Below, piece after piece: positions 5,271 to 8,699 of a DNA stretch of 64,000 bases. Source of the stretch: an uncultured Nitrososphaerota archaeon (GTDB lineage: Archaea; Thermoproteota; Nitrososphaeria; Nitrososphaerales; Gagatemarchaeaceae); assembly GCA_963838925.1 (NCBI GenBank), contig CAWISW010000002.1:288001-352000 (forward strand). The letters are read 5' to 3'. The notes beneath the pieces were generated by a model. It did not search any database. It was not told where the DNA came from and saw only the letters and a list, made by a program, of their open reading frames with translations. The position numbers and the translations under genes were made by a program. Each line of letters starts with the position of its first letter. Positions within the stretch are counted from its first letter, which is position 1.

Positions 5271-5690
5271 ATGAACAACGACAGCCAAGACGACAGTTCG
5301 TCACCGATGCGCGGCTACGGTCAGGCGCCGCACAGGCGCGGCCTGATGGGCTGGATAATCGGCGGACTGGTCATTCTCCTCCTACTCGGCCTGTTCCTGG
5401 GCCCGCTTCTCTACGGCTTCCCCGCCAGACCATACGCGTACTACCCGTTCCCGTTCTTCTTCTTCCCGTTCGGGTTCCTGATCTTCTTCTTCGCGGTCTT
5501 CTTCGTCGTGCGCGGACTCTTCTGGGGTTGGGGCTGGGGGTGGCGTGGTGGCTACTCGCGCGGATACTGGCACAGCCAAAGGTACTACGGCGACGCCACA
5601 GAGATCCTCAGACAGAGGTACGCTAGGGGAGAGATAACGAAGGACCAGTTCGACCAGATGATGAAGGACTTAAGGGCGAACGGCTCCTAG
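5271..5690 (+). CDS. SHOCT domain membrane protein
   Basis: Two TM segments, Gly/Trp-rich linker, C-terminal DATEILRQRYARGEITKDQFDQM. Confidence 0.85.
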   Translation: MNNDSQDDSSSPMRGYGQAPHRRGLMGWIIGGLVILLLLGLFLGPLLYGFPARPYAYYPFPFFFFPFGFLIFFFAVFFVVRGLFWGWGWGWRGGYSRGYWHSQRYYGDATEILRQRYARGEITKDQFDQMMKDLRANGS

Positions 5691-6125
5691 GCCCTTGCGC
5701 CCTTTTTTCTGCTGTAGGGTTGGCCCAGACTGGTAATCACGCTGGGTTGCCACACTTAGGCCGTTCTCCTTGTTGAGCTCTTGCCAGAGTGCCAGTCGGA
5801 CCACCGCAAGCGGGATGAAGATGATCAACTGCTGCGTGCTGTATCTCCTGACGTAATGGCTGTCGGAAGTCATCCCCTCAGCAATCTCCTTCGAAGCGGT
5901 CCCTGTCCTTGCAATCGTTATCGCGTAGGCCAAGAGCGGGATGTAGTTGAGTCCTGTGAGCACGAGGTAGGCTCCCAAAGCCTGCTGGCCTGCGTGGGCT
6001 ACGAGGAGCCCAAGCACGATGATCCCAGGCGTCCCCACGCCAAACTCGATCATGATGAACCTCGGGCCGTGGAGGAATATGTCCAGGGCGACGAGCTTCC
6101 TGACGCTGATCAACCGCCCCTCCAT
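5670..6125 (-). CDS. Hypothetical membrane protein
   Basis: ATG 6125 (MEGRLISVRKLVALD) preceded by GGAG; about 3 TM segments; C-terminal tail runs into the convergent SHOCT gene. Confidence 0.6.
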   Translation of the reverse strand: MEGRLISVRKLVALDIFLHGPRFIMIEFGVGTPGIIVLGLLVAHAGQQALGAYLVLTGLNYIPLLAYAITIARTGTASKEIAEGMTSDSHYVRRYSTQQLIIFIPLAVVRLALWQELNKENGLSVATQRDYQSGPTLQQKKGRKGLGAVRP

Positions 6126-6178
6126 GGCTCTCCTTCGGCCTCCCCTGGATAATACGCTTGGGCTTGGAAGCGGGATTG

Positions 6179-6226
6179 GTGTGGGGGGTTGCATCATGGA
6201 CTCTAAGTTCAGATCCAACGGCCCTG
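6179..6226. repeat. Degenerate att-like repeat (copy of the 7635-7686 junction)
   Basis: 6184-6216 matches 7641-7673 at 25/33 positions ungapped (GGGGG.TGCA...TG.ACT..AAGTTCA.ATCC), by manual alignment. Confidence 0.6.
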
Positions 6227-6436
6227 AATGAGGCATTGAACCTCAGCGACGGCGAGGAGAAGTTCATCGTCAACGCGAAGATTGGTCAGGGGATGCGGGG
6301 GACTCGAGAGGGGGGGCGTTCCCATGTAGACTTCCTCGGCGACGAGGAGGGAATGCTCTTCACAACGAACCTCAAGGAAGTCACTGCGCGAAACTTCGAG
6401 CAGGTGTCAGAAATCTTACAGGGTCGCTCCTGTTAA
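6221..6436 (+). pseudogene. C-terminal remnant of a VirB4/TraE-like ATPase
   Basis: ALNLSDGEEKFIVNAKIGQG...EE..LFTT..KEV resembles the VirB4-family C-terminus; no Walker motifs, no credible start; begins at the att-like repeat. Confidence 0.55.
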
Positions 6437-6462
6437 TAACAGTGTTAACCGAAACGTTAACA
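6431..6462. promoter_or_regulatory. TGTTA/TAACA palindrome cluster upstream of FTR1
   Basis: TGTTA-A-TAACA (6431-6441) and TGTTAAC-N6-GTTAACA (6443-6462), directly upstream of the CTAAATA box (6472-6478). Confidence 0.55.
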
Positions 6463-6502
6463 TCGTGAATGCTAAATATCACTTATGTTATACCATCAGT
6501 AG

Positions 6503-7558
6503 ATGGCGACCAAGCCGGTACACTCTGGCCGCATGGGGCGATGGCAATGGGCCCGTACCGCGGCCATACTTGGCGCCGCAGTGGCGGTCGCGAGCGTGCT
6601 CATCTGGCAGGGCATCACGGCTGCGGGCAACCCGAACCCGAGTGCACCTCACACTACCTTCCCGGTCGCAGCGCTCGACATCGCCGTTCTTGTAGCTCGC
6701 GAGGGACTCGAGTCAATCCTTGTGCTCGCGGCGCTCATCGTCGGTCTCAATGGCAAGAACTATGGATACCAGCGCCCGATCCAAGCTGGCGCCGGACTGG
6801 GCTTCGGAGCTGGCGTCGTGACCTGGTTCGTCGCAATCTCGGTCGTGGGCGACCTGATGGTCAACTACGGCGCGCTCGCGGTCCAGGCGGCCATAGGCCT
6901 GTTCGCCGTCATCGTGCTCCTCATCGTCATGAACTGGTTCTTCCACGGCGTCTACTGGTCGGGTTGGATTAACATGCAGACCCGCGCGAAGCGGTCGCTC
7001 ATCGCGGAGGCCGGTCAACTGGGCAAGAACACCCGCCGCCTGCTTCTCGGCCTAGTTGTACTGGGCTTCGCCTCCGTGTACCGCGAGTCGGTGGAGGTCG
7101 TCCTCTTCCTCCAGAGCTACTATCTCGAGATGGGGCCTACCGTCGTCTACTACGGCGCGGCCGCCGGCTTGGTGCTGACGGTGGCCACGGGTTACTTGAC
7201 GTTCCTCGGGCACCGCCGCCTCCCCTACAAGCGGATGCTCGTGGCGACGGGTGTCCTCCTCACCGGCGTCCTCTTCGTCATGGTCGGAGAGGAGGTCAAC
7301 GAGATGCAACTCGCGGGCTGGATTGGGACCACGAACATCCCCGGGCTCCAGGGCATCCCGGCTTGGGCGGGGCTATGGTTCTCCGTCTTTCCCAATGTCC
7401 AGACCTTTGTGGGACAGGCGCTCGCGCTCCTACTCGTGGCGGGAACCTACTTCTTCGCCAGACACAAGATGTGGAAGCTGGTTCACCCTCAAACACCGCG
7501 CGCGAGGGTCACTCCTTCATCGCGCAAAGTAGAGGACGCAGATATGCCCTTGACGTAA
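6503..7558 (+). CDS. FTR1/EfeU family iron permease
   Basis: Two RExxE motifs (REGLE, RESVE), MNWFFH, Q.AGW; multiple TMs. Confidence 0.9.
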   Translation: MATKPVHSGRMGRWQWARTAAILGAAVAVASVLIWQGITAAGNPNPSAPHTTFPVAALDIAVLVAREGLESILVLAALIVGLNGKNYGYQRPIQAGAGLGFGAGVVTWFVAISVVGDLMVNYGALAVQAAIGLFAVIVLLIVMNWFFHGVYWSGWINMQTRAKRSLIAEAGQLGKNTRRLLLGLVVLGFASVYRESVEVVLFLQSYYLEMGPTVVYYGAAAGLVLTVATGYLTFLGHRRLPYKRMLVATGVLLTGVLFVMVGEEVNEMQLAGWIGTTNIPGLQGIPAWAGLWFSVFPNVQTFVGQALALLLVAGTYFFARHKMWKLVHPQTPRARVTPSSRKVEDADMPLT

Positions 7559-7604
7559 AGCTACCTGCACCCACGTGAAGTCATGCTTTCATGAATCGCG
7601 GGAC

Positions 7605-7686
7605 CTGCCGATTTCCGACGGTCTCATGCAAAAAGTGTGTGGGGGATGCAATTTGAACTTGAAGTTCAAATCCCGTCGTCCCCGCC
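7605..7686. repeat. Degenerate copy of tRNA-Leu 3' end plus flank, joined head-to-head to a second tRNA-3'-like fragment
   Basis: 7605-7658 matches 8582-8635 at 40/54 positions ungapped; perfect IR ATTTGAACTT-G-AAGTTCAAAT (7651-7671); 7664-7686 GTTCAAATCCCGTCGTCCCCGCC has T-loop, T-stem, acceptor strand and discriminator spacing. Confidence 0.75.
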
Positions 7687-7752
7687 TCTCAGAAGAGGTG
7701 GAGCCTGCTCGAAGGATTCCCCGACTTCACCAACTCTCGCTCCTCCCGAATG

Positions 7753-8460
7753 CTATGCGAAAGCCCCCACAACGATGCCGACCAGGTATCCGACCACGAC
7801 TGCGAGCATCCCGAGGACCAGGAACTCGGTTGCGCTCAGGTACCATCTTCCACCTGCGACTCTTGTCTTTAGCGCCCCCGCGGCGAAGAGTGTGATTGAA
7901 GCAAGCAGTATCGAGCCGTAGGCTGCAGAGTTCAGGCTCGTGAGCAAGAGATACGGAAGCAGCGTTATGGTCGCGCCTAGGAGGTGCGAAAGGCCGAGCG
8001 TCAACGATTCTCTTGCGGGGTTCGCGGTCTTTCCCGGGATGAACTCAAGGACGTGGGTGACGTGCGCCTTTAGCCATCGATCTTTATCAAGTGAGAGACG
8101 ATTCACGAAGGAGTCCGCCTCCTCCCCACTGAAGCCCTCATCGATGTAGTATTGACGCATCTCCAACTTCTCGACTTCTGGGTGCTCCGCGAACTCCCTC
8201 TTCTCCTCCTCAATCATGTACTGGTAGATCTGTTTCTGCGTCCTGGCGGAGAGGAACTCCAGTGTCACCAGAGCGGCGAGCCCCGTGAGCATCCCGATTA
8301 CCCCGGCGATGGCGACTGTCCTTGTGCTTCCCGTCGCAGATGCAACCCCTATCGAAAGGCCGAGGATCGATATCAGGCCGTGTCCAAGGCCGAATACCAG
8401 CTGCCGGACCAGGTCGGCAATTCTCTTCTCAGAAGCGTGCGAGTGGGCGTACTCGGGCAT
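7753..8460 (-). CDS. VIT1/CCC1 family metal transporter
   Basis: VRQLVFG..G, Glu-rich cytoplasmic domain (EEEKREFAEHPEVEKLEM), H...LE, NP...L, LLPY; 5 TMs. Confidence 0.88.
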   Translation of the reverse strand: MPEYAHSHASEKRIADLVRQLVFGLGHGLISILGLSIGVASATGSTRTVAIAGVIGMLTGLAALVTLEFLSARTQKQIYQYMIEEEKREFAEHPEVEKLEMRQYYIDEGFSGEEADSFVNRLSLDKDRWLKAHVTHVLEFIPGKTANPARESLTLGLSHLLGATITLLPYLLLTSLNSAAYGSILLASITLFAAGALKTRVAGGRWYLSATEFLVLGMLAVVVGYLVGIVVGAFA

Positions 8461-8614
8461 GATGAACTGCTCGTCCGGGCCTGTAAAGAAGTTGCTTGGA
8501 AGAATTTCGGTTCTGCCTCTGCGCAGCTACGGTCAATGCGTTCGATGCGCACTGCAATTCAGGTTCAACTCCCAAAGGCTTCTGCGAACTTCTGACCATC
8601 TCATGTGAAAGGTG

Positions 8615-8699
8615 TGCGGGGGGTGGGATTCGAACCCACGAACCCCTAAGGGATGGGGTCCTAAGCCCCACGCCGTTGACCAGGCTTGGCGACCCCCGC
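8615..8699 (-). tRNA. tRNA-Leu(TAG)
   Basis: GCGGGGG/CCCCCGC acceptor, D-arm GCCAAGCCTGGTCAACGGC, anticodon arm TGGGG-CTTAGGA-CCCCA, long variable arm, GTTCGAATC T-loop, discriminator A; CCA not encoded. Confidence 0.97.

Follow-up and report, generated by a model that had tools for sequence, protein, structure and literature searches.

Cis-mobilizable elements (CIMEs) of Firmicutes, which build up by site-specific accretion (PMC5704250; this and the other published systems are compared here from excerpts of the papers cited), keep their att sites while the genes for integration and transfer are lost, form tandem rows where a target gene ends (3'), take in newcomers at the att site that holds the gene end, and descend from integrative and conjugative elements (ICEs). 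We analysed an archaeal locus that is similar in each of these respects, its ICE descent being indicated by a VirB4 stump. It occupies positions 6179 to 8699 of a window of 64,000 nt (C2:288001-352000 of an archaeal metagenome-assembled genome, or MAG, of 1.84 Mb in 3 contigs, with 61% G+C and 87% complete), where an intact tRNA-Leu(UAG) gene adjoins two intervals that hold iron-transport genes and are bounded by copies of the tRNA end. With a confidence that lies somewhat above even, we read the locus as a tandem array, now decayed, of two units that are non-autonomous mini integrative elements and adjoin this tRNA gene at its 3' end. It is CIME-like in its logic and integron-like only in its outcome, and it is not a canonical integron.

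The present units differ from CIMEs in their archaeal host, in their size of 0.64-2.6 kb with usually one gene, and in the use of one arm family at at least three tRNAs; moreover, no partner ICE or integrase was found at the loci examined, and mobilisation is here a proposal made from sequence. The tycheposon islands of Prochlorococcus (bioRxiv 10.1101/2020.12.28.424599) are likewise adjacent to tRNA genes, with successive integrations that push older elements inward, partial tRNAs that separate the elements, and degenerate remnants. However, tycheposons carry their own tyrosine recombinase while no examined unit here does, and the separators here are a conserved two-arm site of ~150 nt instead of a bare partial tRNA. 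Integrons, including archaeal ones (bioRxiv 10.1101/2022.02.06.479319, PMC9668308), resemble the present arrays in being composed mostly of one-gene units of diverse functions without a recombinase of their own, and integrase-less clusters (CALINs) are common among them (PMC9668308). Canonical integrons occur in Archaea, and the main text of PMC9668308 mentions tRNA 0 times. In contrast to integrons, there is no intI by the array described here, the site lies on a tRNA acceptor end with T-arm mimics and does not appear to be of the attC or attI kind, and the cargo orientation is mixed.

Among archaeal elements, those of Thaumarchaeota (PMC6563490) also integrate in tRNA genes (57% of integrations), re-use their sites in tandem and include ICEs with VirB4/TrbE; their att sites are likewise short (median 17 bp). 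The smaller sizes given for their cryptic integrated elements and ICEs are 3-12 kbp, unlike those of the units reported here. Neither integrase-less units of ~1 kb nor this arm family were found in the excerpt of PMC6563490. That att sites can be used again in tandem has been described for archaea (PMC6563490, PMC8371274). The 1.8-kb tRNA-Thr insertion of Caldiarchaeum subterraneum (PMC3293823), from a related archaeal lineage, is very small as well, is flanked by tRNA fragments and is present in several copies in its genome, but it encodes a recombinase and disrupts the tRNA, whereas the units here encode none and leave the tRNA intact. No account of integrase-less units of ~1 kb that lie at several archaeal tRNAs and carry a two-arm site mimicking the T-arm came up in the excerpts of the literature covered.

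The features of the locus, listed from the tRNA outward, are as follows; the cargo of unit B (977 nt) is VIT1, and that of unit A (1457 nt) is FTR1, next to which 71 terminal codons of a VirB4-type ATPase remain.

8614-8699, minus strand: intact tRNA-Leu(UAG) gene (ARAGORN; Rfam RF00005, 52.7 bits).
8614-8625, on the plus strand: putative recombination core c, the last ~10-12 nt of the tRNA, placed where junction copies cease to match tRNAs.
8582-8613: spacer S of unit B, which lies nearest the tRNA within the P' arm (23/32 identical to 7605-7636; within the profile hit 8570-8635, E=8e-7).
8536-8578: distal portion of the same P' arm, with a decayed pseudo-core and a T-arm-like box (c'-Q-A); 8553-8573 lies within it.
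7753-8460, minus strand: gene for a membrane protein of 235 aa in the VIT1 family (vacuolar iron transporter-like), the cargo of unit B (Pfam PF01988, 2.5e-47, positions 1-213 of 214).
7637-7680: internal junction, consisting of core c (7637-7646) and the P arm of unit B (Q-A palindrome, 7647-7680); profile hit.
7605-7636: spacer S of unit A, in its P' arm (23/32 identical to 8582-8613).
6503-7558, plus strand: gene for an iron permease of the FTR1 family with 351 aa, the cargo of unit A (Pfam PF03239, 1.5e-8).
6221-6436, plus strand: remnant of a VirB4-type conjugation ATPase, its last 71 codons, fused directly to the P arm.
6179-6220: distal (oldest) junction, consisting of core c (6179-6188) and the P arm of unit A (25/33 identical to 7641-7673), with chromosomal flank to its left.

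An earlier reading of this DNA, made from the letters alone (hereafter the sequence-only reading), had reported that the end of tRNA-Leu(TAG) recurs together with its flank, and an ungapped scan of the whole genome (both strands, ~3.7 million positions) bore this out. The last 22 nt of the tRNA and 32 nt of 3' flank (8582-8635) are repeated at 7605-7658 in the same orientation and without gaps (40/54 identical), which is the top non-self match genome-wide, followed by 34/54 at another tRNA-Leu gene and by 31/54. The 32-nt flank taken by itself had a best non-self match of 23/32 in the genome, with a runner-up of 21/32. The more decayed junction proposed at 6184-6216 stood as well: it matches 7641-7673 at 25/33, and at least 25/33 was reached elsewhere in the genome only twice, at the palindromic overlap of the site on the opposite strand and at one unrelated place, C2:54073, which lies 1.2 kb to the 3' side of a second tRNA-Leu gene that bears an intron, a single CPBP-protease gene separating the two. 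The similarity of the junction copies to the tRNA breaks off in the alignment at the T-loop (..GAAC), as had been stated.

A profile of the junction, which the sequence-only reading had proposed to build from the three junctions of the window, was here built with nhmmer from 12 junctions of other genomes only, this genome being left out. It recovered all four of the named sites: 7598-7675 (E=1.2e-9), 8570-8635 (E=8e-7), 6184-6218 (E=0.005 genome-wide and 7e-4 in a 12-kb search) and 8536-8578 (E=0.011 genome-wide and 0.0014 in a 12-kb search). The weak copy that had been pointed out at 8553-8573 was not significant when scored alone (best non-self score 16/21), but it falls within the last of these hits, and its box was found at the equivalent place in three other genomes, G012, G018 and G008 (G006, G007, G008, G009, G010, G012, G014, G015, G016, G018 and G031 are labels of other genomes compared). 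Well-preserved equivalents of 8536-8578 are located 76-79 nt from the tRNA core in these three genomes and in several metagenome contigs. Apart from the tRNA, Rfam yielded nothing.

Comparison of the copies in this genome, in six congeners and in metagenome contigs showed a common plan, given here antisense to the tRNA, on the plus strand. First comes a core (10-12 nt) equal to the acceptor 3' strand of the adjacent tRNA, followed by a P arm of ~35 nt, (T/G)CAAC-CTGAAC-TTTARG-TTCARATCC, a T-arm-like palindrome that reads CTGAAC-TTTAAG-TTCA at this locus; then come the cargo and a P' arm of ~110 nt made up of a pseudo-core, a second palindrome or box, and a spacer of ~33 nt that ends at the next core. 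Both arms together amount to ~150 nt. From this plan, core doublets ~77 nt apart are expected at the tRNA and between units, with a single core at the far end. The doublets measured in the genus loci and metagenome stretches were 73-79 nt apart, for units of 0.64-2.6 kb, and the cores of the window are located at 6184, 7641, 8540 and 8618. The attC sites of integron cassettes are imperfect inverted repeats that form a single-strand hairpin; here, the ~19-nt palindrome of the P arm was the only part that folded consistently. Folding of the whole junction was not better than that of shuffles for the best-preserved copy (z of -1.3 to -1.4) and was slightly better for the window copy (z of -2.3 to -2.4).

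Other accounts of the site were rejected. The 76-79-nt doublets taken as cargo-less elements ("empty 77-nt units") are explained better by a P' arm with a pseudo-core. Arms derived from coding remnants do not agree with our reading of the copies, among which the DNA box is conserved and the translations are not. A tRNA-like minihelix would fit the Leu-type junction, which folds like an acceptor and T-arm, but this pairing is absent with other cores. The spacer begins with ATG ~10 nt after the tRNA, like the integrase gene in G007 and G015; for an SSV-type scar, there was no PF16795 match in this genome, and no frame was read as open across spacer, core and P arm.

The arms belong to a wider family. 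The P-arm pattern, searched with up to two mismatches in 23 genomes of the genus, was present in 14 of them, with 0 matches for the reversed pattern used as a control, and was also present in 19 metagenome stretches. At least three different tRNAs have these arms attached to their ends: besides tRNA-Leu, a tRNA with the acceptor GCGGTCG has the same spacer and P arm beside it in G010, and the P arm also adjoins GTGCCCCGGGCG-type cores next to a Glu-type tRNA, the 12-nt core in G016 being identical to the end of that tRNA. Because the same arms flank different tRNAs, they are derived from the elements and are not native tRNA flank. The P arm is fused to the VirB4 stump at the same nucleotide in the window, in G010 and in G018, next to different tRNAs, and the cargo beside this stump is FTR1 in the window and an MFS gene plus a regulator elsewhere. 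This fusion is older than the insertions, since it is shared by three genomes with different cargo and tRNAs. The stump (6221-6436) aligns with the C-terminus of 649-688-aa open reading frames (ORFs) in G010, G015 and G018, the 649-aa ORF matches the solved VirB4 structure PDB 4ag5 (9.2e-13), and full-length VirB4 genes are present in these three genomes; the stump and the full-length genes of the relatives thus indicate an ICE ancestry, which agrees with the ICEs published for Thaumarchaeota (PMC6563490).

The content of the intervals was mostly one gene, as the sequence-only reading had it for the window, where VIT1, FTR1 and the VirB4 remnant were all confirmed (tRNAs were called with ARAGORN and Rfam, and cargo families with Pfam). 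All of the metagenome intervals examined (10/10) had one dominant ORF of 138-464 aa, and two of the ten had an additional ORF of 60-61 aa. The range of cargo takes in VIT1, FTR1, a CPBP protease, DUF4386, MFS plus regulator, an M29-like protein, an alpha/beta hydrolase, RibD_C, APH and unknowns, and by our own count 11 are oriented one way and 4 the other way.

An indirect sign of movement came from a unit with a 293-aa gene: G012 has it at tRNA-Leu(UAG), whereas a metagenome contig has it at tRNA-Leu(UAA), a gene with an intron. The two copies are 91% identical in nucleotides from the distal core to the tRNA (93% in amino acids) and have identical boundaries; homology reaches no further than the core in one direction and 9 nt beyond the 5' end of the tRNA in the other, the DNA beyond the tRNA being unrelated, and the metagenome contig holds two further units absent from G012. 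The comparison of gene content across relatives, another check that had been proposed, showed the tRNA-Leu(UAG) locus to be hypervariable, with different content in each of G006, G012, G018 and G009, and with neither cargo nor junction copies in G014. Another tRNA of this genome offers an independent parallel: at tRNA-Ser(GGA) (C1:64476-65480; L031 2477-3480), a 917-nt unit with only PIN (VapC) and MazE/AbrB-type antitoxin genes is closed by a 56/57 direct repeat of the 3' part of the tRNA, the site is empty in G031, and a related VapBC unit is second in line behind a newer one in G008.

The repeats, the conserved arms, the architecture common to the family, the differences by unit among relatives and the occurrence of one unit at two tRNA-Leu genes are observed; from these we infer a circular intermediate, the class and source of an integrase, and an order of events. 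A tyrosine integrase encoded elsewhere would recombine the core of a circular unit with the core of the tRNA; integration would rebuild the tRNA and displace older units away from it. Such serial integration would leave two cores 77 nt apart next to the tRNA, further doublets between units and a lone core at the far end, a prediction that matches the pattern. Unit A, with the VirB4 stump and FTR1, would have come first and unit B, with VIT1, later; both units, their cores mutated, are probably now fixed. The serial integrations at the tRNA 3' end proposed by the sequence-only reading find support in the tandem layout (distal, internal attP-like and tRNA-proximal junctions), in the element-derived arms and in the hypervariable locus.

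The absence of an integrase from the window, also stated earlier, was borne out by searches with PF00589 and PF16795, neither of which gave a match. The genome-wide list of tyrosine recombinases that had been suggested came to two ORFs, neither of which adjoins an array. When 10 genus loci (10 kb on the element side) and 19 metagenome stretches (2 kb on each side) were searched with tblastn, no match came from the 3-4 integrase queries (those of G007, of G018 and of this genome, including its second recombinase-like ORF) or from VirB4. The 431-aa recombinase of this genome has orthologs at 83-92% amino acid identity in 4 of the 22 other genus genomes, along with many distant paralogs, and is absent or only distantly matched in most of the array-bearing genomes. 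Integrase-bearing elements at tRNAs occur in the genus: G007 has a 7.7-kb element at tRNA-Leu(CAG) (C1; L027+L028 27270-35070) in which a 412-aa integrase, endowed with a zinc ribbon, starts 8 nt after the tRNA and is accompanied by a 642-aa AAA-type ATPase and an exact direct repeat of 16 nt; G015 is similar; and G018 has an 11-kb element at tRNA-Ser with an SSV-type integrase. No autonomous element with the arms of the present family was found in the examined parts of the 23 genomes. Beside the 431-aa recombinase (L035 6932-8402, on C3 of this genome), a glutamine synthetase is divided into two overlapping ORFs (Gln-synt_N with part of the C domain, and the rest of the C domain), which suggests a frameshift or an assembly error.

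Several observations count against a tandem array built by core-to-core integration. No integrase was found at the 29 junction loci and stretches of the arm family, and in this genome (87% complete) the only two tyrosine-recombinase-like ORFs (431 aa and 444 aa) are both on another contig. The second box predicted for unit A is without statistical support: a possible decayed c'-Q-A at ~7560-7600 was seen by eye only, and a 12-kb search gave no profile match there. The junction copies of the window are only 74-76% identical to each other, so its sites are probably inactive. G014 is not a clean empty site, with 590 nt between the tRNA and the flanking gene compared with 57 nt to the left of the array here. 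Unit A looks eroded, with a gene stump and an FTR1 that diverges from its G006 ortholog 75 nt before the stop, and the G006 FTR1 sits in an FTR1-Kelch-OFeT_1 cluster without junction copies. Finally, the cargo also moves by routes that core-to-core mobility does not explain. VIT1 occurs at 89-92% amino acid identity in other contexts in G012, G014 and a further MAG; in G012 (89%; L016 4892-5928, C5) it forms a 1020-nt unit with an exact 17-nt repeat of the tRNA-Arg(CCG) end and different arms, which implies that VIT1 has moved independently of the present arms, and in G014 and the further MAG there is no tRNA within 4 kb of it. VIT1 as a cassette with these arms was accordingly rejected, the homology between contexts covering the gene with ~50-70 nt upstream and ~4-16 nt downstream only. 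The tRNA-Arg(CCG) locus of this genome is without the 4.4 kb found at that of G012.

These points bear differently on the explanations that compete with the tandem array. Purely local erosion, in which two large elements (an ICE and another) were integrated serially and each was deleted in place to one useful gene, the small units never having moved on their own, has several points in its favour: the VirB4 stump lies directly at the P arm, the 3' end of FTR1 is altered, and the gene is syntenic with a larger iron-gene cluster in G006 (80% nucleotide identity to the G006 ortholog over 6430-7484 only). Toxin-antitoxin pairs and useful transporters are also what selection would keep, integrated archaeal elements often lose their integrase (PMC8371274), and CIMEs arise by decay (PMC5704250). 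Nevertheless, arms of the same ~150 nt border cargo of unrelated kinds in dozens of units within a narrow size range, the identical stump junction at different tRNAs in three genomes predates the insertions, the 293-aa unit has the same boundaries at two tRNA-Leu genes, and the examined parts of the 23 genomes yielded no autonomous member with these arms, all of which makes purely local erosion rather unlikely. The statement of the sequence-only reading that the elements were eroded down to their cargo fits unit A, by its stump and altered FTR1; taken as a whole, the interpretation given in that reading is partly supported. Chance similarity, or tRNA pseudogene fragments left by local duplication with no mobile element, is hardly credible: the copy at 8553-8573 is by itself not above chance and the 3' ends of Leu isoacceptors resemble each other, but the rank-1 genome-wide matches take in flank that is not tRNA, the independent profile recovers all of the sites, and the copies share features foreign to the tRNA (TGCA and the palindrome) with copies in other genomes.

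An integron-like platform, on which a host recombinase would capture, excise and reshuffle one-gene cassettes at the T-arm-like boxes so that the array serves as a functional gene bank, is improbable in our judgement. One-gene intervals with diverse cargo, arrays of up to 3-4 units, unit content that differs between close relatives, a T-arm-like box on both sides of the cargo, and the orthologs of the 431-aa recombinase in 4 of the 22 other genomes would all agree with it. However, no recombinase adjoins any array examined, the 431-aa gene is missing or distant in most genomes that bear arrays, the cargo is of mixed orientation (11 against 4), the sites of the window are decayed, and the short, low-depth read contigs gave no evidence of turnover. 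The alternative raised by the sequence-only reading, an integron-like array serviced in trans, is upheld only in a weak sense: integrase-less units with conserved arms do recur, at least one of them at two tRNA-Leu genes, while the arrays examined have neither an integron integrase nor an adjacent recombinase, no attI/attC-type site is evident, orientation is mixed and the copies of the window are probably inactive. As for reads, the stretch of the window occurs in three soil-metagenome runs of one study; the read contigs from it are short and of low depth, and none joins 7658 to 8635 or 6201 to 7658, which says nothing either way about empty sites or excision. A single 343-nt contig, from a relative and of low depth (2.9), joins 8493 to 7675 on opposite strands; it may represent an inverted VIT1 unit in another strain and is too weak to interpret.

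In the surroundings of unit A, the left neighbouring ORF (5670-6126, minus strand) has homologs that adjoin PadR/SHOCT in G014 and G006. Elsewhere in this genome, a second array (C2:54047-55430; L002 8068-9431) lies at an intron-bearing tRNA-Leu, whose anticodon was read by eye as UAA and which ARAGORN mislabels; it comprises a single junction copy, a remnant of HTH_10 and the gene of a CPBP-type protease. Two orphan junction pieces of the same family, with profile E=1e-6 and 9e-4, lie ~560 nt from each other at C1:106932-107592, without an adjoining tRNA. At tRNA-Gln(CUG) (C1:252180-254504), three partial copies of its last 13-24 nt with flank are located at +1294, +1816 and +2247. In G009 (C3; L020 4468-5690), the body of tRNA-Leu(UAG) lacks the 3' part of the T-stem and the acceptor strand, and the matching 3' piece is 755 nt away, the DNA between them being taken by ARAGORN for an "intron" of 755 nt; either the tRNA may be disrupted or its T-loop may mark the joint of an inversion. 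With introns allowed, ARAGORN reported 9 tRNAs of this genome with "introns" of 235-1524 nt, at least some of which are likely to be 5' parts stitched to distant copies of the 3' end.

For annotation, the units account for intact "orphan" genes between tRNA-end look-alikes, and they carry the warning that tRNA finders may stitch junction copies into false long-intron tRNAs. Genetic tools, which this group lacks, could also be docked at the conserved ~150-nt site. The claim of an undescribed archaeal gene-capture system goes further than the window allows, CIMEs and site-specific accretion being already known in bacteria, and it is the family of units, more than the window, that deserves follow-up. 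Tentatively, and with the odds in our view against it, the family can be considered a lineage-wide gene-capture system, serviced in trans, in which mostly one-gene units of ~1 kb are excised, exchanged and stacked in soil and peat archaea related to Nitrososphaeria. Units would then dock at Leu-UAG, Leu-UAA, Glu-type and GCGGTCG-type tRNA ends by way of the ~150-nt two-arm T-arm-mimic site, with integrases supplied by visiting elements or by the host; the system would be an independent analogue of integron cassettes derived from ICE att sites, and the window would show an old case, by now fixed, from which the host obtained genes of iron homeostasis. If small integrase-less units do move as units, these soil archaea would have a simple route to gain or swap single adaptive genes, such as metal transporters, hydrolases, toxin-antitoxin pairs and phosphotransferases, and the arrays adjacent to their tRNA genes would be a readable record of recent gene flow.

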